Shown here in pieces: positions 10,947 to 31,078 of a stretch of 31,078 bases of DNA (its first letter is position 1; the number at the start of each line of letters is the position of its first letter). The position numbers and the translations under genes were made by a program. The stretch comes from Candidatus Iainarchaeum sp. Its GTDB lineage: Archaea > Iainarchaeota > Iainarchaeia > Iainarchaeales > GCA-2688035. The DNA lies in contig JAQTNI010000011.1 in NCBI GenBank assembly GCA_028713935.1, forward strand, positions 1 to 31,078, given 5' to 3'. A model generated the notes under the pieces. That model searched no databases and was not told the DNA's origin. It saw nothing but the letters and a program-made list of their open reading frames with translations.

Positions 10947-10990
10947 TTTTCTTCCCCATTATCTAACCTGAAATTTGAAATCCAGAATTC

Positions 10991-11395: not shown

Positions 11396-11450
11396 TCAAA
11401 ATCACCTGAACAAATAGCAGCTGAAACCATTAATATGGCTTGCTGAAACC

Positions 11451-11527: not shown

Positions 11528-11536
11528 CAGCACGGA

Positions 11537-12052: not shown

Positions 12053-12061
12053 AAAAACAAC

Positions 12062-12441: not shown

Positions 12442-12450
12442 AAAGCTGTG

Positions 12451-12651
12451 TTATTTTTCAATTATTTTGATTGCCTCTACTGGGCAGGCGCTTTCTGCCT
12501 TTTTGTTTTCCTCTATTTCCTTGCCGGAAATTTTTGTTTTTAAAGGCCGTACTTTTTCGCCATTTTCAACCCAGTTGCTGCACACTACTGTGCAGGCCTT
12601 GCAGCCAATGCACTTGTCTTCAAAATATTTTACAACAGCTGTTTTTGCCAT
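12451..12651 (-). CDS. Small single-cluster [4Fe-4S]/[3Fe-4S] ferredoxin
   Basis: 66 aa. It has CIGCKACTVVC (CxxCxxC) plus a distal ACPVEAI Cys-Pro ligand. Confidence 0.8.
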   Translation of the reverse strand: MAKTAVVKYFEDKCIGCKACTVVCSNWVENGEKVRPLKTKISGKEIEENKKAESACPVEAIKIIEK

Positions 12652-12661
12652 TCAATCGCCC

Positions 12662-13171
12662 TTATTCTTTCAGCAATTGCTCAATCATTGCCCGGAATTC
12701 AGCTTTTTCCTTTGCAAGGTCCTGTTCAGCTTCAAAACCATTGCCAATCCTGTAATATTTTCCGCCAAAAACAAATGCAGGAATCCTGCTTTCAGGGCTG
12801 AACTTTTTAAAAATTGCAATTTCAGAATCTGGAATTTTTGTTGTTGCCGCATTGAGAGTGTCTGCGCCAGTGTCTATTTCCCAGTGATAAGCAACAATTT
12901 TTCCCTGCGCAACATATTCCTTCATTGTTGAATCAAAAGTTTCCTTTATCCAGATGCAGTGCGGGCACCAGGTAGTTGAAAACAGCCTTACAACTGGCTT
13001 TCCGTCAATCTTTTCAACAGTTGCATTTTCCTGATAAGAAAAAGTCCCGAATTTTTTTACATCGCCATTGTTGGGCAAAACAAAAAATCCAGTTGCAATT
13101 CCCATGAATGCAATCAGGACAACTGCAATTACTGCGACCCCGATTACAATTCCAATTTTTTTTGTTTCCAT
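12662..13171 (-). CDS. Membrane-anchored extracytoplasmic thioredoxin-fold thiol:disulfide oxidoreductase (CPHC)
   Basis: 169 aa with an N-terminal TM anchor (IGIVIGVAVIAVVLIAFMGIATGFFVL). The active site is WCPHC, and the cis-Pro segment is RIPAFVFGG. Confidence 0.8.
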   Translation of the reverse strand: METKKIGIVIGVAVIAVVLIAFMGIATGFFVLPNNGDVKKFGTFSYQENATVEKIDGKPVVRLFSTTWCPHCIWIKETFDSTMKEYVAQGKIVAYHWEIDTGADTLNAATTKIPDSEIAIFKKFSPESRIPAFVFGGKYYRIGNGFEAEQDLAKEKAEFRAMIEQLLKE

Positions 13172-13175
13172 AAAA

Positions 13176-13490
13176 TCAATCCCCCTTTTCCTGTTTCATT
13201 GCAAGGCACTTTTCGCAATTGCCGGCAACATGCTTTTCAGCAATCCTCATCATTGGCAAAACAGTTTTGTTATTCACAGAATAAAGCCTTTGCCTGCCGT
13301 CCTGTTCTGCATGGACAATCCTGCAGGCATTCATTGAAAGCAAAGCATGTGAAACCTTGCTTCTTTCGGCGTCAAGCGCACCGGCAAGCTCTGTCACTCC
13401 CATTGGCCTTGCCATGAGCTCTTCCAGAATCTGCACCTTGAGCCTGTTTGCAAACATGCCGAAAAAAAGCTGTTTCTCACACCTGCCCAT
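13176..13490 (-). CDS. ArsR-family transcriptional regulator
   Basis: The wHTH reads RLKVQILEELMARPMGVTELAGALDAERSKVSHALLSMNACRIV, with a C-terminal CEKC. The maximal ORF starts at GTG 13508. ATG 13490 is favoured because a TATA-like box lies about 25 nt upstream of it. Confidence 0.8.
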   Translation of the reverse strand: MGRCEKQLFFGMFANRLKVQILEELMARPMGVTELAGALDAERSKVSHALLSMNACRIVHAEQDGRQRLYSVNNKTVLPMMRIAEKHVAGNCEKCLAMKQEKGD

Positions 13491-13510
13491 ATGTGAATTA
13501 TAATTCACGC

Positions 13511-18699: not shown

Positions 18700-18815
18700 T
18701 TTATCCGCTTCCTTTCAATTTCAATTGTTTCAGAATTTCTTTTAATAGTTTGTTTTGTTCCGACAATAAGCGATTTGTTTCTGCGCCTGTTGCACTATAG
18801 AAATAGAAGATTAAG

Positions 18816-18887
18816 CGCCCTGGCCGGGAATCGGACCCGGGTCGCAGCCGTGACAGGGCCGCATCCTAACCGCTAGACTACCAGGGC
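18816..18887 (-). tRNA. tRNA-Asp: tRNA-Asp (anticodon GUC)
   Basis: I folded the reverse complement by hand: GCCCTGG ta GTCT agcggtta GGAT g CGGCC ctGTCac GGCTG cgac CCGGG tccgatt CCCGG CCAGGGC g. The acceptor stem is 7 bp, the anticodon stem 5 bp, the variable loop 4 nt and the discriminator G. No CCA is encoded. Confidence 0.85.
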
Positions 18888-19790: not shown

Positions 19791-21251
19791 TTATTCCTTT
19801 TGCTTTCCTTCTATTTTGAACAATTCCATAAAAGGCAGTGTTTTTGGCGGGTTTCTCCCAAAATCAGACAAAATTTGCTCGCCAATTGTTATTGCCCTGA
19901 ATCTTGCAATGTTTTTTGCGGCCACTTCAAACTTTGTCCTTTTTGTCTGCGAAACATGCTTTTTTATGGACTCATCTTTTTTTTCAAGAGTTTTGTTGCA
20001 GAATTCAACAATTGCATTAAACCCCTTGTGCGTGAACAGGCCCCATGGAGTTTCATAATCCCAAATTTCAGGTTTTTTCTTCAGCTTTTCAATTGCCTCA
20101 AGCGCCACTCTTCTTGCAAACCTGTGCGTTGGATGCGTGTCGCTTTCCTGGGGCAAAAAAACAATGTCAGGCCTTGTTTTGTTCAATGCCTGAAAAATCT
20201 TTTTTTTGTCCTTTACAAAGCTTTTTTCCCCCTCATCATAAAAACCAAGCTGCAAAAAAACAGGTTTTGTTTTCAGGATTTTTGCCTCCGCAATGCTTTC
20301 TCTCCGCCTGATTGCTGTTTTTTGCTCTTTGCTCTGGTTGTTTTTCACTGCCCTGTGCCCGGAAGTCATTACAAAAACAAGAACATTGTTGTGCCTTGCA
20401 AGCATTGAAAGGGTTGCTCCGGCCGCAATTGCACTGTCATCGGGGTGCGGGGAAATGAAAATTATTCTTTTTTTTTTAGGCAGGTTTTTTTCAGAAAAAA
20501 CAGTTGTGCCGTTATATTCAATTGACAATGCGCTTTCAAGCAAAAAAACAGCTTCTTCGTTGCAATAAATTTCCGCATTCCCGTGTTTTCCCAGTATTGA
20601 CGCTGGAACTTTTTCAGTTGCCTTTTCAAGCATTTTTTTTATTGCCCATGATTTTTTCTTTCCAATTGCCATCAAAATAATTTTTTTTGCTGCCATTATT
20701 GTTGCCAGGCCCATTGTAATCGCCTGAGTTGGAACGCCTTTCTTGGTTTTAAAAAATCGCGCATTGACCGCCCTTGTTGCATCCGCAAGCTTTACAATCC
20801 TTGTCCTTGAGGCAAAGCCCGAGCCCGGCTCGTTAAAGGCAATGTGCGCATTTTCCCCGATGCCGAGCAGTGCAATGTCAATGCCTCTTTTTTTTACAAG
20901 CGCTTCCCTTTCAAAAGCCTGTTTTTTCATGTCCTTTGCTTTTCCGTCAAACAAAAAAATGTTTTTTGAAGAAGCATTTATTTTATCCAAAAAATTTTTC
21001 CTCAAAAACCTTGCATATGACTGCGAATGCCCCTGAGCCAAGCCGGCATACTCGTCAAGATTCATGAAAATTGCTTTTGAAAAATCTATTTCCCCGTGCT
21101 CAAACTTTTCAACAAGCTCCTTATACAACCCAAGCGGAGTGCTTCCTGTTGGAAGGGCAATCACGCTTGACGGCTTTTTTTCCAGTGCCTTTGCTATCTG
21201 CGCAGCAATGCTCTTGAAAATCAATTCTTCAGAACAGACAAAAACATTCAT
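19791..21251 (-). CDS. nagB: Fusion protein: glucosamine-6-phosphate deaminase/isomerase (NagB-like) plus PIG-L/LmbE-family de-N-acetylase
   Basis: The N-terminal half carries ALPTGSTPLGLYKEL, MNLDEYAGL and LLGIGENAHIAFNEPGS. The C-terminal half carries the PIG-L signature IIFISPHPDDSAIAAGATL...VFVMTSGH. Confidence 0.85.
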   Translation of the reverse strand: MNVFVCSEELIFKSIAAQIAKALEKKPSSVIALPTGSTPLGLYKELVEKFEHGEIDFSKAIFMNLDEYAGLAQGHSQSYARFLRKNFLDKINASSKNIFLFDGKAKDMKKQAFEREALVKKRGIDIALLGIGENAHIAFNEPGSGFASRTRIVKLADATRAVNARFFKTKKGVPTQAITMGLATIMAAKKIILMAIGKKKSWAIKKMLEKATEKVPASILGKHGNAEIYCNEEAVFLLESALSIEYNGTTVFSEKNLPKKKRIIFISPHPDDSAIAAGATLSMLARHNNVLVFVMTSGHRAVKNNQSKEQKTAIRRRESIAEAKILKTKPVFLQLGFYDEGEKSFVKDKKKIFQALNKTRPDIVFLPQESDTHPTHRFARRVALEAIEKLKKKPEIWDYETPWGLFTHKGFNAIVEFCNKTLEKKDESIKKHVSQTKRTKFEVAAKNIARFRAITIGEQILSDFGRNPPKTLPFMELFKIEGKQKE

Positions 21252-21295: not shown

Positions 21296-22396
21296 TCAAA
21301 GCGCGGGAGGCTTTTCAAACACAATTATGCTTTCCCTTACTGTTCCCACTTTTATTGTCCTGCAGCGCATGCAGTGGATTTGCCTTGCAACAATTTTTTG
21401 CACTAGCCTGAAGCCCAGTTTTTCCCCGATTTTTATGATTTCATCATCGCTTTCAACTGTTTCATAGGGAAAACAGCCCCCGCCAATTACAATAACCGCC
21501 TTTCCCCCGGATTTTAATGCAAAAAAAATGTTTTTCATTGCCTTTTCCATGTCTTCAAAATAAGCCTTTGCAATTAGGGGAAGGTTGGATTCATAATCCC
21601 TTCCTGTTGGGGCATCCGCAATGTGCGCCCGTAATTTTGTTTCCTGTGCATTGAAAAACAATCCTAATTCCATTTTGTAAACGCTTGTGTATTCAATTTT
21701 GTTCAGGTAAGGCGGAGAAGTAATGGCACAGCCCACTGAATTTTCTTCCAGCTTTGCTGTGCGTGCATCATCCTCAAAAATTTCAGGTTCAGGGCCTGTT
21801 TTTTGCGCCTGCTTCAAATCCAAAAGCATTTTTTTTATTTTGCCAAGAAGAAGTTTCTTTACAGGCATTTCCGGCTTTTTCTGTTTTCGCAGGGAGCCCC
21901 CGATTTTAATCACATTTGCAACCCTGCCTGTTGTGTCAATCAGGGCGAGCAAAAATAATTTGCGTGTGCGCGAATCAGTTATTTCATTTATTTTTTTGTA
22001 ATAAAAAAAAATGTCATCAAGGTTTTTTTCACGGAAAAGCCGCCTTATCTGCTTGTTTGAAAATTTTCCAATCTGCCTCGGCTCTAATTTTGAAAATTCT
22101 TCCAGTTGCTTTTCCAGTTCTTCAAGATTGTAATTCCTTGTTTTTGCTTCTGCTGCAAAAGCAGCAAGCGGGCTCGCATCAAGGCCAATGCTTTTCAATC
22201 CAAGGTTTTTTGCAGCAAGCAAAGTTGTTCCGACTCCGCAAAAAGGGTCCAGAATCGGCCCCTCCAATTTGAATTCTTCAACCAGCCATTCCACAAGCTT
22301 TTTTGCATAACCTTCTTTGTAATAAAACCAGTTATGGATTGGCTCTTCCTTGTTCGGGGTAAAAGTAACCAGTTCAGCCAGATTTGAAGGGATCAT
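21296..22396 (-). CDS. SAM-dependent DNA methyltransferase (N6-adenine or N4-cytosine type), orphan
   Basis: Motif I is ILDPFCGVGTTLLAA at about aa 50. Motif IV is ITSPPYLN at about aa 226, separated by a ~170-aa putative target-recognition region. No restriction or specificity gene is adjacent. Confidence 0.7.
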   Translation of the reverse strand: MIPSNLAELVTFTPNKEEPIHNWFYYKEGYAKKLVEWLVEEFKLEGPILDPFCGVGTTLLAAKNLGLKSIGLDASPLAAFAAEAKTRNYNLEELEKQLEEFSKLEPRQIGKFSNKQIRRLFREKNLDDIFFYYKKINEITDSRTRKLFLLALIDTTGRVANVIKIGGSLRKQKKPEMPVKKLLLGKIKKMLLDLKQAQKTGPEPEIFEDDARTAKLEENSVGCAITSPPYLNKIEYTSVYKMELGLFFNAQETKLRAHIADAPTGRDYESNLPLIAKAYFEDMEKAMKNIFFALKSGGKAVIVIGGGCFPYETVESDDEIIKIGEKLGFRLVQKIVARQIHCMRCRTIKVGTVRESIIVFEKPPAL

Positions 22397-22420
22397 AATT
22401 AAAAATTAGAATGAAATTCT

Positions 22421-23926
22421 TTAAATTCTCGCGTGTTTGGCGAGGTTTTTTATTGCCAAGAAGCAGTTTATTGCGGGGTAGGCTGCAAAGAAAAGGAAAA
22501 TTATTGCAGTTGTAATCTGCCTGCTGTAAAGGATTGGAACTCCGAAGCGCGGCAGTTCCTGGTATAGCAGGACAGCGACCCATGCAAAGCACAAAATTAC
22601 AAATAGGTTTAATGCAAGTTTTTTCAGCTGTTTTATTGAAAAAGAGTCATGCGGCCTGAGTTTTGATTCCTTCTGGCTTTCAGGGTGGGGCAGCATTGAA
22701 AATATTTTTTCATGAAAAGCCCTTAGGCTATACAGGGGCTGGAATATTACTACTGTCACTAAAATCACTAAAAAAGCAATTGGCGCCAGCAGTGTTGCTT
22801 CTGTTCCTGAAAAAATTTTTGCTGCAATTGCGGTGTTTGCTATTATTACTACAAATTCTCCAAGCGGCACAAGCAGTATTGCCGCAAGCGTTGAATCTTT
22901 CCTGTTTAACCCGAAGAAACCCCCAAACAGGTGTGTTGAAACGGAATGCGCTATCAAAGCGCTTATTGCAAGCAGTATGCATAGCCCTCCCAAAAACACA
23001 AGGCTTTCAAAAGCAGGGAGCATTAATTGCCCGGCTTCAATGCTGTAAAAAAGCGTTGTGCCAAAGGCAACAAAAAAGAAAACAAGGAAAAAATCCCTTA
23101 CAAATTCGACATCCTTTTTTGTCCTGTGCCCTGAATCTGTTTCTGCCAGTGCAAATCCCGCAAAGTATGCGCCTAATGCAGTTGACAATCCAAGGATGCT
23201 TGCAAGAGTTGCAACAACCAGGCCAATGCCAAGCGCATAAAGCGTTACTTCTGTATGGCCAAAATTGTTTTCTTTCAGCCATTTTTCAACCAGCTTTGAA
23301 AGGTGTGAAACTGCAAAAAAAGCTGCCACTGCAAATACAAGCGCTGCAAGCCCTAAGGCAAGCGGAGAAACACTGGATTCCGAAGAAGTGCTTGTGATGA
23401 AAACAAGCAATATTATTCCCAAAAAATCCTGCAGTATAAGGATTGCTATTGCAAGCTTTGCGGCATGGCTCTGCATTAATCCCCTGTCAAGGCAGAATTT
23501 TGCAACCACTGCTGTACTTGTGGAAAAAAGCATCATTCCCACTATGATTGAAAAAACCAGGCCAAAGCCGAATATCTCCATTATCAAAAAACCCAGCCCC
23601 ACTGAAAGTGTCATGTCAATCAGTGCAAGGCCGATTGCGCTTGAGCCTGCTTCCAGAAAGTCTTTCAGTGACATTTCCAGGCCCAAATAAAAAAGCAGTA
23701 TGAACAATCCAAGTTCGCTAAAACCGATTACAAGCGGGTCGCTTGGATGCAAAAAATTCAGCCAGAAAGGCCCCAACAAAAAGCCGGCAAGAATATATCC
23801 AAGCACAGGGTTTTGCCCTATTTTTTTGAAAAAAATGCTGAATACTATTGCAATGATAATAATTATTCCAACTGTTGTCAGGGGCAGGATTTCCATATTA
23901 ACCATTAAATTAATTGCTTTATCCAA
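22421..23926 (-). CDS. Monovalent cation:proton antiporter (CPA2/Kef-NapA-like)
   Basis: 501 aa with about 12-13 TM helices. The N-terminal signature is IGQNPVLGYILAGFLLGP. Confidence 0.8.
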   Translation of the reverse strand: MDKAINLMVNMEILPLTTVGIIIIIAIVFSIFFKKIGQNPVLGYILAGFLLGPFWLNFLHPSDPLVIGFSELGLFILLFYLGLEMSLKDFLEAGSSAIGLALIDMTLSVGLGFLIMEIFGFGLVFSIIVGMMLFSTSTAVVAKFCLDRGLMQSHAAKLAIAILILQDFLGIILLVFITSTSSESSVSPLALGLAALVFAVAAFFAVSHLSKLVEKWLKENNFGHTEVTLYALGIGLVVATLASILGLSTALGAYFAGFALAETDSGHRTKKDVEFVRDFFLVFFFVAFGTTLFYSIEAGQLMLPAFESLVFLGGLCILLAISALIAHSVSTHLFGGFFGLNRKDSTLAAILLVPLGEFVVIIANTAIAAKIFSGTEATLLAPIAFLVILVTVVIFQPLYSLRAFHEKIFSMLPHPESQKESKLRPHDSFSIKQLKKLALNLFVILCFAWVAVLLYQELPRFGVPILYSRQITTAIIFLFFAAYPAINCFLAIKNLAKHARI

Positions 23927-23946
23927 TAAAAAGCTTTTCCAAAGCG

Positions 23947-24525
23947 TTATTCTTCAAAAAAATCTTCGCCCAATATTTTCAAAAGATGCTGCCTTGCGCT
24001 GCCAATTCTTGACTTGACAGTTCCTTCTGGAATTCCAAGCAGGCTTGCGATTTCCTTGTAAGGCAATTGCGCCTGCGCCAAAGCCAATATCCCTTGGTCT
24101 TTTATTGATAATTTTTGCATGGCCTTTTTGGCGAGTTCCAGATTTTCTTTGCGCAATAATTGCGCTTCCGAGGATTCTTTGCGGCTGCCCCTGCGCAGGT
24201 CAATTCCCAGGTATTGAAAAAAAGCCTCTGGCAATTGATTTGCAGGCCTTATTCTTTTGCTTCGAAGCATGTCGTGGCAAACATTTTGTGCGATGGTTCC
24301 AATTAAGCTTGGGATATTTCTGCCTGGGTCGAGCTTGGCTCGGTTCCTCTGCAATCTCAAAAACACTTCCTGAAGCGCATCCTGCTGGTCTGCAGGATTG
24401 AGAAAATGAGTGCGGGCTATGCGCAGTACAAGCCCGTTGTATTGATTGAAAAGTTTCTTCAGAGGCGGGCGCCTCTGCTTTTGCGCAATTATTGGCTTTG
24501 CGCGGGGTTTGGCATTTCCAGGCAT
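23947..24525 (-). CDS. ECF-type sigma-70 family protein homologue
   Basis: The region 2-like segment is DQQDALQEVFLRLQRN...LIGTIAQNVCHDMLRSKR. The region 4.2-like HTH is LSIKDQGILALAQAQLPYKEIASLLGIPEGTVKSRIGSARQHLLKIL. Confidence 0.8.
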   Translation of the reverse strand: MPGNAKPRAKPIIAQKQRRPPLKKLFNQYNGLVLRIARTHFLNPADQQDALQEVFLRLQRNRAKLDPGRNIPSLIGTIAQNVCHDMLRSKRIRPANQLPEAFFQYLGIDLRRGSRKESSEAQLLRKENLELAKKAMQKLSIKDQGILALAQAQLPYKEIASLLGIPEGTVKSRIGSARQHLLKILGEDFFEE

Positions 24526-24547
24526 AGTAATTCTTTTGCCAAAAACT

Positions 24548-24555
24548 CTTTATAT
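24548..24555 (-). promoter_or_regulatory. TATA-like box upstream of the sigma-factor homologue
   Basis: The minus strand reads ATATAAAG, centred about 26 nt upstream of ATG 24525. There is no Shine-Dalgarno sequence between them. Confidence 0.4.
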
Positions 24556-24568
24556 GCTTTTCTTTTTT

Positions 24569-25690
24569 TTAAAAAAATTCTTTTATTTTTGCCTGTTTTT
24601 CTTTTTCCAATTGGATAAATGGCAGCGCCCTTCCTGCAATTCCGGCCTGCTTCAATTCTTCTGTTTCCCTGAATTTTTTTTCTTCCCTCAGCAGAATGAT
24701 TTTTTCACTTGTTTTCGGGCCAATTCCAGGCACGCGCAGCAATTCCTCCCTGCGCGCAGTGTTAATATCAAGGGGAAATTTGTCAGGGTTATTCATTGCA
24801 ATGTCCAGTTTCAAATCGTGATTAAGGGAAAAATTCCCGGTTTCCCCAGTGGCTGATTCAATTTCTTTTTTTTTGAAATCATAAACGCGAAGAAGCCAGT
24901 CTGCCTGGTAAAGCATGTGCTCCCTGTTTTTGCTTTCGGCTTTGTGCGATTCAAATTTTGTTCCCTTTACAGGCGAGAAAGCGGAAAAATAAGCCCTGTG
25001 CAGGGAAGTGTTTTCATAAAGCCAGTCCATTCTTTGCAGGACCTGGCTGTCTGTTTCCCCAAGAGCGCCGACAACAATTTGTGTTGTAAAGCCGCTTGGC
25101 AGCAGGCCTTTTTTGTTTGCTTCATCAATCCAGAAAAGCCGCTTAATCAAATCGTTCTGGTAATTTTTTGTGCTTGACATTTCAGAAAACAATGACGCAT
25201 CAACTGCCTCAAGGTTCAGGGAAATTCTGTTTGCATATTCCGCAGTTTCAAAAATTTTTTCTTTTGAAGAGCCAGGCAGCACCTTTAAATGCAGGTATCC
25301 TTTGAACCCGAATTTTTTTCTTATGATTTTTGCGGATTCAATTATTTTTTCAGTTGACCTGTCAGCATCAGCTGTCACTGCAGAGCTCAAAAACAGGCCC
25401 TGGACAATTCCTTTTTTTTCAAGGAAATTAAAGCTTTGCGCAAGCTCAATCGGCTCAAGCTCTTCCTTGCGCGATTTGCAGGTGTTTGCGCAATAATTGC
25501 AGTCGTGAATGCAGGAATTTGACTGGAGCACTTTCATGAGGCGGCAGTTTTCGCTTGTGTTGGAGCAGTCATAAACAATGTTTTCCAGTTCAGCAGGGAT
25601 ATGCACTTTCCTCAGGCTTTTTTGCCTTACTCCCCCGCAGGAATCCCATGAAGCGGAATTTCCCAGGACCCGTAATTTTTCAAGAAGCAT
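24569..25690 (-). CDS. Radical SAM protein of the putative DNA modification/repair type, with C-terminal helix-hairpin-helix
   Basis: The N-terminus reads LRVLGNSASWDSCGG. The radical SAM cluster is CIHDCNYC (Cx3Cx2C). The C-terminal HhH is ELLRVPGIGPKTSEKIILLRE. Confidence 0.75.
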   Translation of the reverse strand: MLLEKLRVLGNSASWDSCGGVRQKSLRKVHIPAELENIVYDCSNTSENCRLMKVLQSNSCIHDCNYCANTCKSRKEELEPIELAQSFNFLEKKGIVQGLFLSSAVTADADRSTEKIIESAKIIRKKFGFKGYLHLKVLPGSSKEKIFETAEYANRISLNLEAVDASLFSEMSSTKNYQNDLIKRLFWIDEANKKGLLPSGFTTQIVVGALGETDSQVLQRMDWLYENTSLHRAYFSAFSPVKGTKFESHKAESKNREHMLYQADWLLRVYDFKKKEIESATGETGNFSLNHDLKLDIAMNNPDKFPLDINTARREELLRVPGIGPKTSEKIILLREEKKFRETEELKQAGIAGRALPFIQLEKEKQAKIKEFF

Positions 25691-25745
25691 GCAAAGAATG
25701 CGGGTTTAAATAAAAAAAGGCTTTTGGAAGCAGGTTTCCCCTATT

Positions 25746-25853
25746 CTGCCCTTCTTTTCTTTTGGAAAGAAAAGAAGTGCAAGGTCCTGAATCTTTGATA
25801 AACAGAAAAGGAAATTGCCAAAAAGAAAGAATCTTAAACTTTTGATAAACAAG
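25746..25853. repeat. Intergenic repeat element, copy B
   Basis: Sequence: ctgccCTTCTTTTCTTTtggAAAGAAAAGAAGtgcaag...(46-nt insert containing a second ctttgataaaca)...ttgccaaaaagaaagaatcttaaacttttgataaacaag. The tail aaacttttgataaacaag is identical to copy A. Confidence 0.7.
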
Positions 25854-25868
25854 GAATTCAGAAGAGGT

Positions 25869-26648
25869 TTATGCGCCTTCAATCGGGTTTTCTTCTTTTT
25901 TGGCTTTGTTTTTGCCTGCCTTTCTGGATTTTTTTCCAGGTTCTTTGTTTTCTTCTGCAAGCGCTTCCGCAATTTTTTCAGGGCTTTCGCTTTCCGCCTT
26001 GTTTTCCTCTGGTTCTTTTCTCCAGCGAAGCGCAAGCACAATTGCGGCAATAAGAATCACAATTCCAATTCCCGCAATTATAAATGTGGTATTGTCAGGG
26101 ATGTTTAATCCGCCATTTCCACTGCCTGTGTTCTGGTCTGTGCCTGCTGGAAAATTTTGGTCAGGAAAATTTATGTTTTCATCAGGATAAGCTTCAAGGT
26201 TCTGGTCTGGGCAGGGAAGGCCTTTTGTGGCATGCTTTAATACCTGCGATTCAATCCACTTGTCAATCATTGCAAAGTCCCCAATCCTGTACTCTTTGCC
26301 TATAAACAGCACAGGGGTCTTGTCCCATACTGGGATGTAATTGCCCTGTGAATCCACAACATATTTTGGCACTAAATAATCTGGTTTTATGTAAAGCTCG
26401 TGCAGCAATTCTGTAGCGCCAGGGCTGTTAATGTCAAAATTGTTTACATCAAAATTGGAATATTTTGCCTGCACGGATTTTAAAGCAGCATCAACGTTTA
26501 CACAGTGCGGGCAGTCCTGTGTGTAAAAAAAATAAGCGCAGACATTGTTTGTATCCCGCGCATTGCTGTCCGCAGCAAAAACAGGCGCCGTTAAAACAGC
26601 AATTAAAAAAAATGCCAGCACTGCAAAAATTTTTTTCAATATAACCAC
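25869..26648 (-). CDS. Secreted thioredoxin/glutaredoxin-fold protein (CPHC) with C-terminal TM anchor and Lys/Glu-rich tail
   Basis: The signal peptide is FAVLAFFLIAVLTAPVFA. The active site is DCPHC and the cis-Pro segment is KTPVLFIG. The C-terminal TM helix is FIIAGIGIVILIAAIVLAL. A ~50-aa charged tail follows. The start is GTG. Confidence 0.75.
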   Translation of the reverse strand: MVILKKIFAVLAFFLIAVLTAPVFAADSNARDTNNVCAYFFYTQDCPHCVNVDAALKSVQAKYSNFDVNNFDINSPGATELLHELYIKPDYLVPKYVVDSQGNYIPVWDKTPVLFIGKEYRIGDFAMIDKWIESQVLKHATKGLPCPDQNLEAYPDENINFPDQNFPAGTDQNTGSGNGGLNIPDNTTFIIAGIGIVILIAAIVLALRWRKEPEENKAESESPEKIAEALAEENKEPGKKSRKAGKNKAKKEENPIEGA

Positions 26649-26670
26649 TTACTAATTGGCTTTTGCTAAA

Positions 26671-26684
26671 TTTTTTAAGTATAT
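26671..26684 (-). promoter_or_regulatory. TATA-like box upstream of the CPHC protein gene
   Basis: The minus strand reads ATATACTTAAAAAA, centred about 29 nt upstream of GTG 26648. Confidence 0.35.
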
Positions 26685-26703
26685 CAGTTTGCATAGTTTT
26701 TGG

Positions 26704-27438
26704 CTATTCAAACCCAACCTTCATTATGTATAAGAAAACAACCCCTATTATAAAAAATGCAAATGAAAAAATTACTTTTTTTGTTTCTGTTTCCTTGTGC
26801 AGTTCCGGAATCAAATCGCTTGCGGCAATGTAAATAAATCCGCCTGCAGCGAATGGCAGCAGGTAATTCGAAAAGCCTGTCTGCGCTGCAAGCAGGAAGC
26901 CAACAAGGCCGCCAGCTACGCAGGTTGCCTGTGACAAAAAGCTGAAAGCCAGTGCTTTTACCCTGCTGAATCCGCCGTATATAAGGACTCCAAAGTTTCC
27001 AAGCTCCTGGGGCACTTCGTGGGCAATTATTGCCATTGTGGTTATTGTCCCGAATTCAATTCCTACAAGAAAACTTGCCGCAATTACCAGGCCATCAATA
27101 AAATTGTGTATGCCGTCTCCAAGCAGGATAAGGTATGTCAATGGGTGTGTTTCACATTTTCCTTCGTGGCAATGGTGCCAGTGCAGCACTCTTTCAATCA
27201 GGAAAAAAAGTATAAACCCAAAGAAGAGGCTTGCAAATGCAATTGTTGTCCCCAAAGGTTCTATTGATTCCGCTAGCAAATGGAAAAAAGCCCCACTCAG
27301 CAAAGCCCCGGCTGAAAAGCCAACCAGGGCAAAAAGAATTTTTTCAAGATTTTTTTTGCTTAGCCAGAGGGAAAATATTCCGGCAAGGCCAACCAAGCTG
27401 TCAATTATTGTTGCAAGGATAATCCATTCCAGAACCAT
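26704..27438 (-). CDS. zupT: ZIP-family divalent metal transporter (ZupT-like)
   Basis: HNFIDGLVIAASF and IIAHEVPQELGNFGVL are ZIP signature helices. There is a His/Cys-rich loop, HWHHCHEGKCETH. Confidence 0.9.
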   Translation of the reverse strand: MVLEWIILATIIDSLVGLAGIFSLWLSKKNLEKILFALVGFSAGALLSGAFFHLLAESIEPLGTTIAFASLFFGFILFFLIERVLHWHHCHEGKCETHPLTYLILLGDGIHNFIDGLVIAASFLVGIEFGTITTMAIIAHEVPQELGNFGVLIYGGFSRVKALAFSFLSQATCVAGGLVGFLLAAQTGFSNYLLPFAAGGFIYIAASDLIPELHKETETKKVIFSFAFFIIGVVFLYIMKVGFE

Positions 27439-27528
27439 AAAACAAGCCTTTTATTTTTGAATGCCTTATTTTTATATATTAATTTTTTTTCAAATCTATT
27501 TTAAACAGGTGTTTTTTGTTTTTACGAG

Positions 27529-27622
27529 AGAATCAAACCGCTCATTGTCCGACCGAAATAGTTTCTGTCATTTCTGCTGAAAAAGCATTAGGTATAAAGT
27601 GCTATAAAGCGGTTTTGATTCT
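27529..27622. repeat. Long-range inverted repeat (14 bp with one bulge) enclosing 65 nt, immediately downstream of the aminomutase gene
   Basis: agaatcaaaccgct (27529-27542) pairs with agcggttttgattct (27608-27622). It lies at the left edge of the compositionally distinct segment. Confidence 0.5.
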
Positions 27623-27627
27623 GTTCT

Positions 27628-28896
27628 TCAGACGTCTTTGAATGTAAAAAGTTCGCCTTTATAGTTCCGTAGTGTGTACATTTTTTTGCCATCCGTATCG
27701 GTTCGAATGTTTTCGATGTAGTTTGGGCTTAACGGTATTTTTCCGCCACCACCTTCAATGTCTTTGATAAATTGTGGAACAGCGTGCCCTGAGGTCCAGG
27801 CATTTAATTTTTCCATTATTTCCAAACCAGTTTCCAACGTAGTTCTTAAGTGGTAGTTTCCTTTCGCTTTGTCACAAAGAAAGATGTAGTACGGTTTGAT
27901 GCCGACCATTAATAGCTTGTGATTGAGTTTTCTAACGATTTCTACATTGTCATTGACTTTTCGTAAGAGAACCATTTGGTTTCCCAATAGAGCCCCAGCA
28001 TCCAATAGTTTTTCGCATGCTTCCAATGTGTCCAGCGTGACTTCTGCGGGGTGGTTAAAGTGGGTATTGATGTATACCGGAGCATATTTACTGAGTATTT
28101 TTGTTAATGAGTCTGTAATCCTGTAGGGAAGTGTTACCAGGTTTCGGGTACCGATTCGGATCATTTCGACATGGTCGATTTTGGCTAGTGTGCTTAGGAT
28201 TTCGTATATTTTTTCATCGTCAAAAGAAAAAAAGTCTCCTCCGGATAGAATAACATCTCGGATTTGGGGGTGTTCTTTGATGTATTGGATGGCGAGGTCG
28301 AAATCATTTTTGCTTTGCGCGCTGCTGGGGTCGGATACTTTATATTTTCTAAAGCAATGGCGGCAATAAAGTGCGCAGTGAAATGTTGTGTAAAACAAAA
28401 CGCGGTCTGGGTATTTGTGTGTAAGAGCGTTTACTCTTGCTCCAAGTGGAATTCGTTCGATTGTTTTTTGGTCTATTTTTTCTCCGGTAACGTTGATGCC
28501 GTTTTTTTTCACCCAACCGGGAACCAAGAATTTTCCATCCGCCAATACGGGGGTAAATAGTTCGTCCTTTAATGGGTCATCGGATTCTTCTTCGTGTTTT
28601 TCCAATTCTTCGGGTTGCGGAATAGCCTGCAACCCCAGCGGGTCGCGCGCATCTTTAATCAAACCAGCATAATACGGCGTGATGCTGACGTTGAATGTTT
28701 CCTTGGACTTTCGAATGGCATCCGTTTCTTTTTTTCCAAGCCCATACAATTCGGCTATTCCTTTAGGAGTGTCCACGCGATTTTGTAATTGCCATTTCCA
28801 AGAAGTCCACTGTTCGTTCGGAACATCTTTCCACTTTGCATGGCGTGGCGCATGCTCAAATCGTTTTCGAATGCTCTCTCGAATCATCATTTCCAA
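27628..28896 (-). CDS. kamA: Lysine 2,3-aminomutase-like (KamA-family) radical SAM / PLP enzyme
   Basis: WKWQLQNR; ITPYY; LTHKYPDRVLF; radical SAM CALYCRHC; VILSGGD; NTHFNHP; LGNQMVLLR; PYYIFLCD; GGGGK (PLP lysine). Confidence 0.9.
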   Translation of the reverse strand: MEMMIRESIRKRFEHAPRHAKWKDVPNEQWTSWKWQLQNRVDTPKGIAELYGLGKKETDAIRKSKETFNVSITPYYAGLIKDARDPLGLQAIPQPEELEKHEEESDDPLKDELFTPVLADGKFLVPGWVKKNGINVTGEKIDQKTIERIPLGARVNALTHKYPDRVLFYTTFHCALYCRHCFRKYKVSDPSSAQSKNDFDLAIQYIKEHPQIRDVILSGGDFFSFDDEKIYEILSTLAKIDHVEMIRIGTRNLVTLPYRITDSLTKILSKYAPVYINTHFNHPAEVTLDTLEACEKLLDAGALLGNQMVLLRKVNDNVEIVRKLNHKLLMVGIKPYYIFLCDKAKGNYHLRTTLETGLEIMEKLNAWTSGHAVPQFIKDIEGGGGKIPLSPNYIENIRTDTDGKKMYTLRNYKGELFTFKDV

Positions 28897-28911
28897 CCGC
28901 CCTTCTTCTGG

Positions 28912-29001
28912 TCAGGCGAAGGTACTGTTCGGGTTAAAGTCGTCATTCCAACCACCGGTAAAGCCGAAGTAAGAAGGGTAGTCAAACAGGAGGGCTGTCA
29001 T
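28912..29001 (-). CDS. Possible 29-aa aromatic-rich small ORF upstream of kamA (speculative)
   Basis: My translation is MTALLFDYPSYFGFTGGWNDDFNPNSTFA*. Its stop lies 15 nt before the annotated kamA start at 28896. No clear Shine-Dalgarno sequence is present, and TATTATAC lies upstream. Confidence 0.2.
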   Translation of the reverse strand: MTALLFDYPSYFGFTGGWNDDFNPNSTFA

Positions 29002-29062
29002 AAGAAGTATGCTCTCATGGGCAGTATAATATTTTGCCTTCAAAAATTATTAAAGCAAAAAC

Positions 29063-29070
29063 TTTAAATA
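29063..29070 (+). promoter_or_regulatory. TATA-like box upstream of the wHTH-domain gene
   Basis: TTTAAATA is centred about 26 nt upstream of ATG 29093. Confidence 0.35.
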
Positions 29071-29092
29071 TTTTATTAAAGTTTATTCTTTA

Positions 29093-29950
29093 ATGATAAA
29101 CGATATTGCGGTATTGTGGGGAAAGAAAAACAGCACCAAAGACCTGATATTCAAAATCCTAATCAGCGACCACCCGCTCAAACTGATCGAACTAACCAAC
29201 TTCATCCAAAGGCGCTATGGAAAATCTGTCACATTCCAGGCGGTCAGGCAGGCGGTATTAGAGTTGGAGGAAGATGGCATTTTGACAAGGAAAAAAAACC
29301 AGTTCCAAATCAGTCATTCGTGGTTATTGGAAGCCCAAAAAACACTTGCGTTAGTTCAGGATGAAATCATGGCAACCGTCAAAAAGCCAAAAAGTGCAGA
29401 ATCTATCAAAGGGGAATTTTCCTCTTTTACGTTCGAAACCCTAAACGATATGATGAAGTTCTGGCAGCAACTCATCAACCATTGGTTTGCCGAATTTAAA
29501 GCAGGCGACTACCCGTACAATTGCTGGCAAGGACAGCATATCTGGGAAGCATTGGTACACTTGGACACAGAAAAAAAGATCATGGAACAGCTTAAACAAA
29601 AAAAAATCAAATCTTACGCCGTTATTTTTGGAAACACGCCATTGGACAAATATGTAAAGCGGTTTTACGAGTCCATCGGTCTGAAAGTAAAGATTATCCC
29701 TCCACAAACAAAATCCGACAACACCTATCACGTGGGAACCTATGGTGACCTAATCATCCAGGCCAAGTATCCCAAAAACCTTGTGCAAAAAATTGATTCC
29801 TTTTTCAAAAAAACGAAGTCTTTTGTGGACATGGATATCAAATCACTTCATGATGTCATCAGCACCAAGACAGAAATCAAACTAACAGTAATAAAAAACC
29901 AGGATATGGCAAAGCAAATAAACAAAATGATAATAGTGCAATGGACGTAG
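29093..29950 (+). CDS. Winged-helix-domain protein with uncharacterised C-terminal domain
   Basis: 285 aa. The N-terminal wHTH-like segment is KDLIFKILISDHPLKLIELTNFIQRRYGKSVTFQAVRQAVLELEEDGILTRKKNQFQIS. The ~190-aa C-terminal part has no motif I recognise. Confidence 0.65.
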   Translation: MINDIAVLWGKKNSTKDLIFKILISDHPLKLIELTNFIQRRYGKSVTFQAVRQAVLELEEDGILTRKKNQFQISHSWLLEAQKTLALVQDEIMATVKKPKSAESIKGEFSSFTFETLNDMMKFWQQLINHWFAEFKAGDYPYNCWQGQHIWEALVHLDTEKKIMEQLKQKKIKSYAVIFGNTPLDKYVKRFYESIGLKVKIIPPQTKSDNTYHVGTYGDLIIQAKYPKNLVQKIDSFFKKTKSFVDMDIKSLHDVISTKTEIKLTVIKNQDMAKQINKMIIVQWT

Positions 29951-29991
29951 TGGAGCGATTATCTCTGACGACAGCCATTGCAAAGTGTGCC

Positions 29992-31078
29992 TTATCCCAC
30001 GGCCCATTTCTTTTTTTTGCCAGCAGTTATTTTCCTGTGCCGGAATTTTTTTTCAAAGGAATAAATTCCAAGGCCGATTGCAATGAAAATTCCGGCAACT
30101 AGCAATTCAAACATTGAGTAATCTAGGAGCATGAAAGCGCATATTATTGCGCCAAGGCCCGCTGTCAGGGGAAATTTTCCAATGTTTAATGGAACCCTGA
30201 AATTTTGGCCAGGGTAATACCTGTTGTAGCGCAGCGCAATCAGTGAAAGGTTCACAAAAAGAAAACTCACAAAAACCATGAAAGTTGTTGCCCTTGCCAG
30301 GATTGAAACGTCTGAAAAAAAAGCCATTGCAATTGCCCCAAGCATTGCAAGCAAAACCGCAACATAAGGCGCGCCTGTTTTTGAACTGACTTTTGTTATT
30401 ATTTTTGGAAATTCGTGCTTTTCCCCCATTCCATACAGCACGCGTGAAGTTACAATAAGGCTTACCAGAACAGTGCTCAGCATTGCAAACAATGCAACAA
30501 CAAGGAAAACAAGGCTGAAATCAGCGCCGCTTGCTTTTGCAGCAGCTTCCGCAAGAGGCGCTTTTGATGATCCAAGTTCAGAAGGCGCCATTATGCTCAC
30601 TGCGCTGACTGCAACCAGAATGTAAAGAATGCTTGTAATTGCTATGCTTGCAAGCAATGCTTTTGGGACAACCTGCCTTGCGTGCTTTGTTTCTTCGCCA
30701 AGCTTTACGATTGCCTCAAAGCCGATGTATGCAAAGAAAACCAGTGTTGTTGCGCTGAGCACTCCTGCAAGGCCGTTGTTAAGCTGGAAATAATCTGTTT
30801 TTCCAAGGAAAGGCAGGCCCAGTGCAATTATGATTGCCATTCCAAGCAGGGAAAGCAGTGTGAAAAAAATGTTTATTTTTGACGAAATTTCTATGCCAAA
30901 CAGGTCAATTGCTGAAAGAATTATTATCAGCAGTATTGCCGTCAATACAATTGGCACTGGAATAATTGATGAAAGATATCTCGCAAACCCAAGCGAAACA
31001 GTTGTCGCGGCAATGAAGCCGATAACAGCAACAAGCCAGCCAAGCAAAAAAGCAAGCCAGTCCTTTCCGAAAGCGTGC
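29992..31078 (-). CDS. APC-superfamily amino-acid permease, 5'-truncated by the window edge
   Basis: The reading frame stays open to nt 31078 (HAFGKDWLAFLLGWLVAVIG...). The protein has about 9-10 TM helices with permease-like segments such as FFAYIGFEAI. Confidence 0.75.
   Translation of the reverse strand, partial: HAFGKDWLAFLLGWLVAVIGFIAATTVSLGFARYLSSIIPVPIVLTAILLIIILSAIDLFGIEISSKINIFFTLLSLLGMAIIIALGLPFLGKTDYFQLNNGLAGVLSATTLVFFAYIGFEAIVKLGEETKHARQVVPKALLASIAITSILYILVAVSAVSIMAPSELGSSKAPLAEAAAKASGADFSLVFLVVALFAMLSTVLVSLIVTSRVLYGMGEKHEFPKIITKVSSKTGAPYVAVLLAMLGAIAMAFFSDVSILARATTFMVFVSFLFVNLSLIALRYNRYYPGQNFRVPLNIGKFPLTAGLGAIICAFMLLDYSMFELLVAGIFIAIGLGIYSFEKKFRHRKITAGKKKKWAVG

Follow-up and report, generated by a model that had tools for sequence, protein, structure and literature searches.

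Transcription initiation in bacteria is characterized by sigma factors, in place of which archaea use TBP, TFB and TFE. How did an archaeal contig come to hold a gene for a sigma factor of bacterial type, and what could its product do there? We addressed these questions in a contig of 31,078 nucleotides from Candidatus Iainarchaeum sp. (JAQTNI010000011.1 of assembly GCA_028713935.1), the whole of which we call the window. The gene occupies positions 23947 to 24525 on the minus strand and encodes, from an ATG start, a protein of 192 residues (MDD5163104.1). An earlier note, made from the letters of this DNA, had read sigma-70 region 2 and region 4.2 signatures in the product and placed it at 23947–24555. 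The open reading frame begins at 24525; the end given in the earlier note, 24555, corresponds to the 5' edge of the TATA-like box.

The protein is a two-domain sigma-70 homologue of the extracytoplasmic function (ECF) family and belongs to no other helix-turn-helix (HTH) family. Both signatures are recovered above cut-off by profile searches: residues 25–91 match Pfam Sigma70_r2 (PF04542; E=2.4e-12, 46.9 bits, cut-off 24 bits) and residues 133–181 match Sigma70_r4_2 (PF08281; E=1.5e-10, 41 bits, cut-off 25.7 bits), with PF04545, a further test of sigma4, at 27.5 bits against a cut-off of 24.1. The NCBIfam sigma70-ECF profile (TIGR02937) aligns end to end (profile positions 3–164 of 165) with residues 22–184 and scores 82 bits against a cut-off of 42.9. 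Non-sigma HTH families (AsnC, LuxR/GerE, Xre-like and others), to which the earlier note had considered that the protein might belong, gave only partial, sub-cut-off matches in the Pfam search, all within residues 138–179. None of the named ECF subfamilies (SigW, SigE, SigH, SigM, Bacteroidetes type 1 and others) was reached in the NCBIfam search; the best subfamily profile, TIGR02985, scored 74 bits against a cut-off of 126.4, and the rest lay further below theirs. The sequence matches in the PDB are all ECF sigma factors, the best being M. tuberculosis SigH (6.7e-9). Among the highly conserved positions of the ECF alignment, 21 of 23 are kept.

The AlphaFold2 model (pLDDT 78) consists of two bundles of helices with a linker of low confidence between them. 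In a Foldseek comparison with the PDB, the top 28 matches are all ECF sigma factors at a probability score of 1.00, and include SigE, SigH, SigL and SigK of M. tuberculosis, E. coli sigmaE, AlgU, SigW and CnrH. The TM-scores are low (0.3–0.4), which we attribute to a different orientation of the domains. Only sigma2 and sigma4 are present, without region 1.1 or a sigma3 domain, and the length of 192 residues falls in the ECF range of about 170–220. The chain starts with a basic tail (residues 1–21, MPGNAKPRAKPIIAQKQRRPP; 24463..24525, minus strand) of low pLDDT and without helix, which lies 5' of the sigma2 domain (residues 22–91; 24253..24462, minus strand). The latter coincides with the Pfam region 2 match and forms helices at residues 22–40, 44–60 and 71–91. 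It is followed by the poorly conserved sigma2–sigma4 linker (residues 92–118; 24172..24252, minus strand; pLDDT 52–65) and the sigma4 domain (residues 119–191; 23953..24171, minus strand), which holds the Pfam region 4 match, the region 4.2 helix-turn-helix YKEIASLLGIPEGTVKSRI and an acidic, conserved C-terminus, LGEDFFEE.

The contig itself is archaeal, belonging neither to a CPR or other bacterium nor to a chimeric assembly. An ordinary bacterial sigma factor on a mis-binned bacterial (for example CPR) contig, or on a chimera, would be a rival answer to the question of origin. The organism is vouched for solely by the label of a metagenome-assembled genome, and the window contains no ribosomal or RNA polymerase marker genes. 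Its proteins are labelled 'Candidatus ainarchaeum sp.' by NCBI. As a taxonomic anchor we used an ADP-forming acetate-CoA ligase (ACD, ADP-forming acetyl-CoA synthetase; 13527..15665, minus strand), identified by family matches. Its closest relatives, 81–86% identical, carry the same 'Candidatus ainarchaeum sp.' label, and further named matches are nearly all archaeal (Bathyarchaeia, Nanoarchaeota, Diapherotrites, Methanobacteriota), with a single match labelled Patescibacteria, which speaks for mis-binning. Against it stand both immediate flanks of the sigma gene, archaeal by best matches and synteny. Upstream lies a native archaeal gene for a radical-SAM and helix-hairpin-helix protein (TIGR03916-like by family matches; 24569..25690, minus strand), whose best named matches come from Candidatus Diapherotrites archaeon (58–69%), followed by Asgard lineages. 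Downstream lies a likewise native gene for a CPA2 cation:proton antiporter of 491 residues (Pfam Na_H_Exchanger and TIGR00932; 22421..23896, minus strand), with orthologs at 74% in the related contig L008 and 71–75% in L128. The window shares synteny with five related contigs, L004, L005, L007, L008 and L128.

The assembly is likewise intact. A separate Logan assembly is 100% identical across 5.7 kb (window 21533..27214) spanning the sigma gene, and the junctions are seen again in two other samples. Composition is homogeneous along the window, with a tetranucleotide correlation of 0.96–0.97 around the sigma gene; GC3 of the gene is 0.48, compared to about 0.39 for the contig. The identity of the independent assembly and the homogeneous composition speak against the chimera that the earlier note had allowed for, and its impression of an archaeal contig is borne out by the flank and ACD matches, the synteny and the promoter architecture.

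This architecture extends along the whole contig. Most contig genes have an A/T box in the region of about −30 to −23 relative to the start codon; upstream A/T content peaks at 0.82/0.76 at positions −30 to −21, compared to about 0.67 elsewhere, and TATA-like octamers peak at −32 to −25, in agreement with the contig-wide boxes described in the note. An unsupervised Gibbs search of 23 upstream regions returned a scattered, G/C-containing motif and no A/T box, the background being A/T-rich. A Shine-Dalgarno-like motif precedes only 5 of 23 contig genes. In contrast, the closest bacterial relative of the sigma gene with genomic context, on contig L002 (65% GC), comes from a setting in which most genes are preceded by a GGAGG Shine-Dalgarno sequence. 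The window also encodes tRNA-Asp(GTC) (18815..18887, minus strand; ARAGORN, 57.9 bits with the Rfam tRNA model), whose acceptor reads GCCCUGG...CCAGGGC+G with discriminator G. It lacks an encoded CCA and has an A/T box some 30 nt 5' of it; both of these features also argue against a bacterial contig. We take its acceptor stem to be of the archaeal type; no tRNA-Asp was found in the other loci for comparison. Taken together, mis-binning or chimerism is close to refuted, and we give it hardly any credence.

The sigma gene carries a promoter of the same kind. A TATA-like box, ATATAAAG, is located at 24548..24555 on the minus strand, −30 to −23 from the ATG, in the same position class as the boxes of the other contig genes. 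It is preceded by an A-rich stretch, AAAAAAGAAAAGC (24556..24568, minus strand), which makes up the rest of the 43-nt intergenic spacer and may serve as a BRE. Neither a Shine-Dalgarno-like motif in the 20 nt 5' of the ATG nor a bacterial sigma-70-type promoter in the spacer was found. A T7 tract (24571..24577, minus strand) overlaps the stop codon of the radical-SAM gene and may be an archaeal oligo-T terminator parting the radical-SAM and sigma transcripts. The promoter is conserved in L128: both contigs keep AAAAAAGAAAA(G)CATATAAA, then 22–24 nt, then ATGCC, with CATATAAA 24 nt from the ATG in L128. The A-rich stretch is conserved there as well, and L128 retains a 20-nt remnant of the 3' end of the radical-SAM gene. 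The archaeal-style box first noted from the letters is found again in a second contig. Most likely, the gene would be transcribed by the archaeal TBP, TFB and RNA polymerase from its own BRE/TATA promoter, and its mRNA would be leaderless or nearly so.

The gene after it, named as a CPA2 antiporter in the note, is indeed one, while the 20-nt gap given there would hold only for translation from a TTG at 23926. Homology to L008 and the NCBI annotation of 491 residues both point to the ATG at 23896, which makes the spacer 50 nt. The antiporter has its own promoter, GGAAAAGCTTTTTATTG (23924..23940, minus strand), which begins 6 nt past the sigma stop codon and is conserved both with L128 and with L008, where the sigma gene is missing.

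Two further contigs from other samples, L128 (P0295/P0444) and L139 (a third copy), contain orthologs of the sigma gene with shared synteny; in all three contigs the CPA2 gene follows directly 3'. The kinship of the source organisms of L128 and L139 to that of the window is judged by synteny and by the 53–92% identity of the neighbouring genes. The source samples are SRR22315509 and the JGI projects 3300038466 and 3300038439. The orthologs open with an equally basic tail, MPRTIKKLRKTRRPRRKRAR, at the conserved ATGCC start. A word-indexed search had left the gene looking like a recent, lineage-specific singleton; this was overturned by P0295, found in an exhaustive search, and by the L128 and L139 orthologs. 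They also strengthen the suggestion of the note that the gene is retained in a non-canonical role. L128 is not among the matches listed by the scan of metagenome contigs, so that absence from the genome and metagenome contig scans proves nothing. In the more distant Diapherotrites contigs compared, the sigma gene is absent at the same locus. An apparently clean empty site in L005 and L008, with a radical-SAM gene followed by a Na/H exchanger, was rejected: the exchanger is not the CPA2 ortholog (23% over 102 residues). In L008, the actual ortholog sits three genes farther along; the locus was rearranged, not simply interrupted.

The sigma gene is the fastest-evolving gene of the block, with 40% amino acid identity, compared to 53–92% for its neighbours, and a dN of 0.54, compared to 0.05–0.40. 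Its dN/dS is 0.40 between the window and L128, a value that is approximate because dS, at about 1.3, is near saturation, and 0.64 between the close strains L128 and L139; the neighbours range from 0.02 to 0.22. These rates, the replacement of key sigma residues described below and the deviating GC3 would suit a passenger, neutral or decaying, that was transferred by chance and serves no function in its archaeal host. On the other hand, the frame is intact in three contigs at dS values of up to about 1.3, and under neutral simulation with 0.65 substitutions per site 0.02% of runs preserved it (at most this share overall), so its openness is not due to chance. The dN/dS ratio is below 1 in every pair, the promoter, the start codon and the C-terminal 42 residues are conserved among the orthologs, and the 21 kept ECF positions are difficult to reconcile with decay. 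We conclude that the gene is kept by purifying selection, despite evolving several-fold faster than its neighbours, and that a mere passenger is very unlikely.

Conservation is uneven along the protein. Sigma4 is the most conserved part, with 62% identity between the window and L128 and 98% between L128 and L139, and the linker shows the lowest identity across the three orthologs. We considered the difference between sigma4.2 (62%) and sigma2 (33%) as a sign of repurposing and dropped it, since 160 pairs of bacterial ECF sigma factors at 30–50% identity are equally asymmetric (0.57 for sigma4.2 and 0.33 for sigma2). The linker lies inside a hypervariable patch of 200 bp, corresponding to about 24115..24315 of the window, that differs by 30% between L128 and L139, strains otherwise 95% identical. 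The pattern suggests allele exchange. A diversity-generating retroelement was rejected as its source: L128 and the window contain no template repeat, and the substitution spectrum is mixed.

Such exchange would also fit cargo of an integrated virus or mobile element, comparable to the rpoS-like genes of DPANN proviruses. Sigma-like genes have been reported in DPANN viruses (PMC12647753), and the best PHROG match of the protein is a phage sigma-factor family (6.8e-19). Here, however, no integrase, capsid, terminase or transposase is found nearby; a single gene is inserted, with spacers of 43 nt and 50 nt, between native flanks whose relative order is kept in relatives, and its chromosomal position is the same in all carriers. 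In IMG/VR, identity over a substantial part of the protein never goes beyond 31%, and a viral origin was rejected on this ground. With PADLOC, nothing was matched in the sigma gene and the genes adjoining it except an orphan type II methyltransferase, and a link to a defence system was dropped as well. Carriage by a mobile element is accordingly given little weight, and appears scarcely probable.

The best reading of the origin is an old transfer from bacteria to an archaeon. The ancestor of a sublineage of the Iainarchaeota (Diapherotrites, DPANN) would have gained a bacterial ECF sigma gene horizontally, and the gene would since have been passed on vertically; both direction and age are inferred. 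Outside the ortholog group, relatives are at most 38% identical, and the closest with an organism name are all bacterial. The best 80 matches in GTDB species-representative genomes are bacterial without exception (80/80), and the top named matches of the exhaustive search belong to Acidobacteria and Eisenbacteria. In the bacterial relative on L002, a gene for a DUF4367 protein lies directly 3'. A MiST2 tally counted no ECF sigma factor in 69 archaeal genomes (PMC2808908). The identity of the protein and this evolutionary history, taken together, are held with high confidence.

What the protein does is less certain. The residues that contact the polymerase and the −10 element were compared with 113 ECF relatives. 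The region 2.2 motif D-x-x-Q-E is intact in the window protein (D49, Q52, E53); of the 113 relatives, 109 have D, 103 have Q and 74 have E at these positions. The L128 and L139 orthologs show a degraded motif, D-x-x-Q-T, with E replaced by T and F55 by L. In the −10 pocket, the Trp position is L74 in the window protein (W in 109/113 relatives) and the Phe/Tyr position is L65 (F or Y in 104/113), corresponding to W81 and F72 of M. tuberculosis SigH; I78 and N81 (SigH I85 and N88) are kept. The orthologs have F, still an aromatic residue, at the Trp position, and the change of the pocket is complete in the window protein only. In SigH, the W81A and F72A mutants have severe defects (PMC6411747). 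The neighbouring genes in the window, L128 and L139 encode no anti-sigma domain, in keeping with the note, which had seen no anti-sigma gene following.

As an archaeal-only RNA polymerase is expected, an anti-sigma partner is missing and two −10 aromatics are replaced, we tentatively favour a DNA-binding regulator over a specificity subunit of RNA polymerase, at somewhat less than even probability for this functional part. That the host has no bacterial-type RNA polymerase is an assumption from its taxonomy. The protein would keep the sigma2–linker–sigma4 fold with its basic N-terminal tail, and its sigma4 helix-turn-helix would bind specific DNA, repressing or assisting archaeal promoters. 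The explanation as a whole, comprising identity, evolution and function, we consider slightly more probable than its negation.

The alternative is that the protein still meets a polymerase. The archaeal clamp coiled-coil, on which TFE-alpha and Spt5 dock, is homologous to the coiled-coil of bacterial beta'. In bacteria, sigma4 pairs with the beta flap-tip helix; neither for this helix nor for the route that the linker takes across the polymerase is a demonstrated archaeal equivalent for a sigma factor known, which weighs against this alternative. As an accessory specificity factor, the sigma-derived protein would attach to the clamp of the archaeal RNA polymerase at its coiled-coil and modulate or redirect initiation. 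D49, Q52 and E53 are retained, so that the protein may still contact RNA polymerase; according to the SigH structure paper, sigma factors in general conserve the residues that touch the beta' coiled-coil (PMC6411747). Factors are known to bind the archaeal coiled-coil; TFE-alpha docks there, on the homologous counterpart of the site used by sigma2 (PMC7289017), and selection acts on the whole two-domain architecture, not on the HTH alone. The degraded D-x-x-Q-T motif and F55 to L change of the orthologs and the loss of the −10 pocket aromatics speak against such a factor, and we regard it as improbable. Improbable, too, is its more specific form, in which the sigma module was domesticated as a partner of the archaeal enzyme, with sigma2 on the Rpo1 clamp coiled-coil and the sigma4 HTH reading a promoter-proximal motif. 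If true, some Iainarchaeota would use a hybrid initiation that combines TBP and TFB with a sigma-derived specificity factor, and the rapid evolution of the central patch would be a sign of its adapting to a new interface.

In comparison with known systems, the protein resembles the bacterial ECF (group 4) sigma factors, such as M. tuberculosis SigH, SigE and SigL, E. coli sigmaE and B. subtilis SigW, in its sigma2–linker–sigma4 arrangement and size, as well as in the region 2.2 DxxQE and region 4.2 HTH residues that it keeps. Unlike them, it is the product of a gene in an archaeal genome, with a BRE/TATA promoter and no Shine-Dalgarno sequence, has Leu at the equivalents of SigH W81 and F72, and fits no named subfamily, with at most 38% identity to the bacterial sequences found. 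A cognate anti-sigma gene beside an ECF sigma gene is typical, though not universal, and the window gene differs from the typical case in having none adjoining. The role that sigma plays in bacteria, promoter recognition and melting, falls to TBP, TFB and TFE in archaea. No relation of these to the window protein emerged in sequence or fold; neither TFB nor TFE is among its profile or structure matches.

Sigma-70 genes without an anti-sigma partner have already been published for DPANN archaea. Castelle et al. (2021, Front Microbiol) described such genes (fam00359) on genuinely archaeal contigs, excluded mis-binning through the co-encoded proteins, found no anti-sigma and left the mechanism as unknown (PMC8204110). 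The window gene agrees with theirs in the archaeal nature of the other genes on its contig and in the lack of an anti-sigma gene. Their emphasis was on Woesearchaeota, whereas the window gene belongs to Iainarchaeota/Diapherotrites. Among homologues with an organism name, none from another archaeal lineage was found in searches that included the best 80 GTDB species-representative matches; the window gene may therefore be an independent acquisition. The rpoS-like sigma genes of viruses and proviruses of DPANN archaea (Nat Commun 2025; PMC12647753) likewise tie a sigma-family gene to a DPANN genome. In contrast to these larger, group-2-like genes on viral contigs, the window gene is of the ECF type, has a conserved chromosomal position and has no viral neighbours.

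Our results overturn nothing, the phenomenon being known from the literature. New here are the two syntenic orthologs, the conserved promoter and start codon, and the rate analysis. With them, the published observation extends to a second phylum-level lineage of DPANN, and the gene may have been acquired there independently. Since three orthologs are available, the promoter is known and the adjoining gene stays the same, the gene is a compact and well-delimited candidate for testing a plain DNA-binding regulator against contact with the archaeal polymerase. It offers a natural experiment in what a sigma fold does without its polymerase when it has long been kept by selection in archaea.

The sigma gene occupies 23947..24525 on the minus strand and encodes, from an ATG start, a protein of 192 residues (MDD5163104.1). 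The sigma-70 region 2 and region 4.2 signatures recognized in the earlier note are borne out by profile searches. Pfam Sigma70_r2 scores 46.9 bits against a curated cut-off of 24, Sigma70_r4_2 41 bits against 25.7, and the NCBIfam superfamily model TIGR02937 'sigma70-ECF' aligns nearly end to end with 82 bits (cut-off 42.9). None of the named NCBIfam ECF subfamily models reaches its cut-off. Non-sigma HTH families in Pfam cover the region 4.2 HTH alone and all stay under cut-off. A sequence search of the PDB returned ECF sigmas only, headed by Mycobacterium tuberculosis SigH (6.7e-9). The AlphaFold2 model has a mean pLDDT of 78, with two helical domains at ~85-94 and a linker at 52-65, and ECF sigma structures fill the top of its Foldseek match list. 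The observation of a sigma homologue is confirmed and its interpretation is correct.

NCBI lists the window as a MAG contig of 31,078 bp whose proteins are labelled 'Candidatus ainarchaeum sp.', which we take for the genus Candidatus Iainarchaeum (Iainarchaeota, DPANN). This label was not taken on trust and was tested against neighbouring genes and intrinsic signals. The best named relatives of the radical-SAM/helix-hairpin-helix protein encoded directly upstream of the sigma gene (24569..25690, minus strand) come from Candidatus Diapherotrites archaeon (58-69% identity), followed by 'archaeon', Asgard lineages and Micrarchaeota. Relatives of the ADP-forming acetate-CoA ligase at 81-86% identity carry the 'Candidatus ainarchaeum sp.' label too, and its named matches beyond these are nearly all archaeal. 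The CPA2 antiporter directly downstream of the sigma gene (22421..23896, minus strand) has a 74% identical ortholog in the related contig L008, a few genes from the ortholog of the window's radical-SAM gene. The intrinsic signals agree with these matches. Upstream of 23 genes, A/T is most frequent at -30..-21 (fractions of 0.82 and 0.76, against ~0.67 elsewhere upstream), the 5' ends of TTTAWATA-like octamers peak at -32..-25, and a Shine-Dalgarno-like motif precedes only 5 of the 23; the bacterial contig L002, by contrast, carries GGAGG before most genes. The contig is therefore archaeal in character, as the earlier note had judged.

The tRNA-Asp gene (18815..18887, minus strand) has the acceptor stem GCCCUGG, discriminator G and no encoded CCA, features which we take to fit an archaeal tRNA-Asp, and an A/T box ~30 nt upstream. 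Its T-loop, UCCGAUU, has C rather than the nearly universal U (pseudouridine) at position 55, and the gene nonetheless scores 57.9 bits with Rfam. Collinearity with the related contig L004 (GCA_020053055.1) extends over the metal-resistance half of the window. A metal and redox cluster at 6399..13508, for the most part collinear with L004, encodes a CopA-type P1B ATPase, a 556-aa HMA, DsbD_2 and cupredoxin-like fusion, a thioredoxin-like membrane protein, an ArsR/SmtB regulator and a DUF7343 membrane wHTH protein.

The sigma gene does not stem from faulty assembly. Tetranucleotide usage is uniform throughout the window, and its correlation around the gene is 0.96-0.97. The Logan assembly of run SRR22315509, made independently, matches 21533..27214 at 100% identity, from the zinc transporter to the methyltransferase genes with the sigma gene between them, and the sigma-CPA2 junction recurs in two contigs from other samples, L128 and L139. 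A mis-binned or chimeric contig is extremely improbable. The lowest tetranucleotide correlation in the window (0.865) falls at 27001..30000. Here lie the genes with the least typical codon usage (r ~0.68), a KamA-family aminomutase (27628..28890), which has no TATA-like box upstream, and a 285-aa hypothetical protein (29093..29950). Neither has a homologue in the examined part of L128, and the segment may be another acquisition.

A word-indexed search with the sigma protein found nothing closer than 38% identity. An exhaustive profile-free search of 1.84 billion representatives returned a single outlier, P0295 (42% identity, 122 bits), well ahead of the following match with 79 bits. P0295 is encoded on L128 (JGI 3300038466), a 31-kb contig syntenic with the window, in the order amino-acid permease, Zip, membrane protein, sigma and CPA2, followed by one inserted giant gene, a DNA methyltransferase and a NagB-PIG-L fusion. 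L139 (JGI 3300038439) carries a third copy, again flanked by this membrane protein and CPA2, and the copies in both contigs rule out a singleton. The radical-SAM gene is otherwise lost from L128, where a 20-nt remnant of its 3' end stays. This remnant (AAAAACAGGCAAAAATAAAA, L128:9850-9900) is identical to the window's radical-SAM/HhH 3' end, lies just upstream of the sigma promoter and looks like a deletion scar. Together with the conserved upstream DNA, it shows the order radical-SAM, sigma, CPA2 to be the ancestral one in these genomes. In Diapherotrites contigs that are more distantly related, the radical-SAM gene is followed by other genes or by nothing, and no sigma homologue is present.

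In the Diapherotrites contig L008 (1796-4804), three genes, encoding a different Na/H exchanger, a His_Phos_1 phosphatase and a GT2 glycosyltransferase, separate the radical-SAM and CPA2 orthologs, against the sigma gene alone at 23897..24568 of the window. The giant gene of L128 (12327-18422), absent from the window, sits between CPA2 and the methyltransferase and encodes a Big_7/Big_13 surface protein of 2031 residues. The methyltransferase, an orphan type II enzyme at 21296..22396 (minus strand; PADLOC MTase_II, 2.5e-47) with no restriction enzyme nearby, is the most conserved gene of the block, 92% identical in L128. The window's NagB-PIG-L counterpart (19791..21251, minus strand) is a 486-aa fusion of glucosamine-6-phosphate deaminase-like and PIG-L/LmbE deacetylase domains, 80% conserved in L128.

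The TATA-like box and the lack of a Shine-Dalgarno sequence, both claimed from the DNA, were found again: ATATAAAG lies at 24548..24555 on the minus strand (-30..-23 relative to the sigma ATG), directly preceded by an A-rich stretch, and the 22 nt between box and ATG hold no Shine-Dalgarno-like motif. This upstream DNA has been conserved in L128, the shared elements being AAAAAAGAAAA(G)CATATAAA and, after a further 22-24 nt, ATGCC. A single point needs correction: the gap to CPA2, given as 20 nt, measures 50 nt with the CPA2 ATG at 23896. This start is backed by the L008 ortholog and the 491-aa NCBI annotation. The window and L008 share a conserved CPA2 promoter, AAAAGCTTTT(T)ATTG. These results show that a protein of ECF fold is encoded in an archaeal chromosome, in a conserved position and behind a conserved archaeal-type promoter. 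The centre of the TATA box lies ~26 nt before the ATG, the usual archaeal TATA-to-start distance (PMC7289017). Transcription by TBP, TFB and RNA polymerase would probably be directed by this box and yield a leaderless mRNA.

No other gene of the block evolves nearly as fast as the sigma gene, which is nonetheless not neutral. Between the window and L128, amino-acid identity is 40% for sigma and 53-92% for neighbouring genes, dN (NG86) is 0.535 against 0.05-0.40, and dS ~1.3 against ~0.7-1.8; dN/dS is ~0.40, an approximate value with dS near saturation, against 0.07-0.22. Between L128 and L139, whose DNA is 95% identical overall, the corresponding values are 77-79% against 94-99.5% identity and a dN/dS of 0.62-0.64 against 0.02-0.19. 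Conservation is seen in the promoter (window and L128), at the start codon and over the last 42 residues of the protein. In a substitution-only simulation at 0.65 substitutions per site, half the observed dS, a 192-codon frame stayed open in 0.02% of runs. Weak-to-moderate purifying selection is shown by these data, and a functionless passenger, which the rapid divergence might suggest, is very unlikely.

A 200-bp patch in the middle of the gene (L128:10142-10361 and L139:1701-1900; window ~24115..24315), reaching from the end of sigma2 through the linker into the start of sigma4, is only 70-71% identical between these two strains, against 92-100% DNA identity elsewhere. As dN and dS are both raised, the patch points to exchange of divergent alleles; a search for a DGR as its source found no template repeat, and the substitutions show a mixed spectrum. 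Second in rate within the block is the gene at 25869..26648 (minus strand; 53% identity to L128, dN/dS 0.22). It encodes a membrane protein of 259 residues that has a signal peptide, a glutaredoxin/thioredoxin-like domain, another TM helix and a tail rich in Lys and Glu. Its homologue lies directly upstream of sigma in L128 and L139, and it has no anti-sigma domain.

Outside the trio of window, L128 and L139, every relative carrying an organism name is bacterial. The best 80 matches in GTDB species-representative genomes are all bacterial (26-37% identity), mainly Acidobacteriota, Actinomycetota and Clostridia, and the named top matches of the exhaustive search are Acidobacteria and Eisenbacteria. 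The closest match with gene context, on L002, sits in DNA of 65% GC with strong Shine-Dalgarno sites and is followed by a DUF4367 gene. The GC3 of the sigma gene (0.48) is somewhat above the contig norm of ~0.39, and its codon usage deviates no more than that of other short window genes. A MiST2 count found zero ECF factors in 69 archaeal genomes (PMC2808908). The simplest account is that the gene was transferred long ago from a bacterial donor that is unsampled or has diverged greatly, the distribution of relatives suggesting the direction from bacteria to the archaeon. That the gene is cargo of a mobile element is extremely improbable; among viral contigs, no relative exceeds 31% identity across a substantial part of the protein.

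In an alignment with 26 relatives, the sigma protein keeps 21 of 23 invariant or nearly invariant columns, including region 4.2 residues. The region 2 residues singled out in the earlier note give a divided picture: the core-binding motif D49-x-x-Q52-E53 of region 2.2 is kept, while the -10 aromatics are replaced. Position 74 is Leu instead of the Trp of 109/113 relatives, and position 65 is Leu instead of the Phe/Tyr of 104/113. These align with W81 and F72 of SigH, which touch flipped -10 nucleotides and whose alanine mutants lose most transcription activity (PMC6411747). The L128 and L139 orthologs have Phe and Leu at the two positions and have also lost the Glu of the region 2.2 motif. Each of the three proteins begins with a tail that is strongly basic and non-homologous. 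As claimed, domain searches of neighbouring genes found no anti-sigma gene beside sigma in the window, L128 or L139. We tentatively propose that the protein may act as a DNA-binding regulator through its sigma4 HTH, to which the basic tail would contribute, and may have relaxed its -10 melting function; we hold this reading at somewhat below even chances. The greater conservation of the HTH than of sigma2 was discarded as an argument, being equally true of ordinary bacterial ECF pairs. The main rival is that contact with RNA polymerase is kept, region 2.2 docking on the archaeal clamp coiled-coil, the binding site of TFE-alpha and Spt5 (PMC7289017). The window's intact motif would suit such contact and its erosion in L128 and L139 would not, and we consider it unlikely. 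The probability not taken up by these readings goes to some other role.

Sigma-70-class genes were described in DPANN genomes, especially Woesearchaeota, by Castelle et al. 2021, who excluded mis-binning, found no anti-sigma factors and left the mechanism open (PMC8204110), and rpoS-like genes were reported from DPANN viruses in 2025 (PMC12647753). This sigma gene is therefore not new in kind. It differs in its host, Iainarchaeota/Diapherotrites, and since no named relative comes from another archaeal lineage, it may be a separate acquisition. In the literature searched, synteny, promoter conservation, rate and replaced -10 aromatics were not found reported for such genes. What is added here is evidence of conserved synteny, a conserved archaeal promoter and replaced aromatics in the -10 pocket, in a gene that evolves at about three to ten times the rate of its neighbours with dN/dS below 1.
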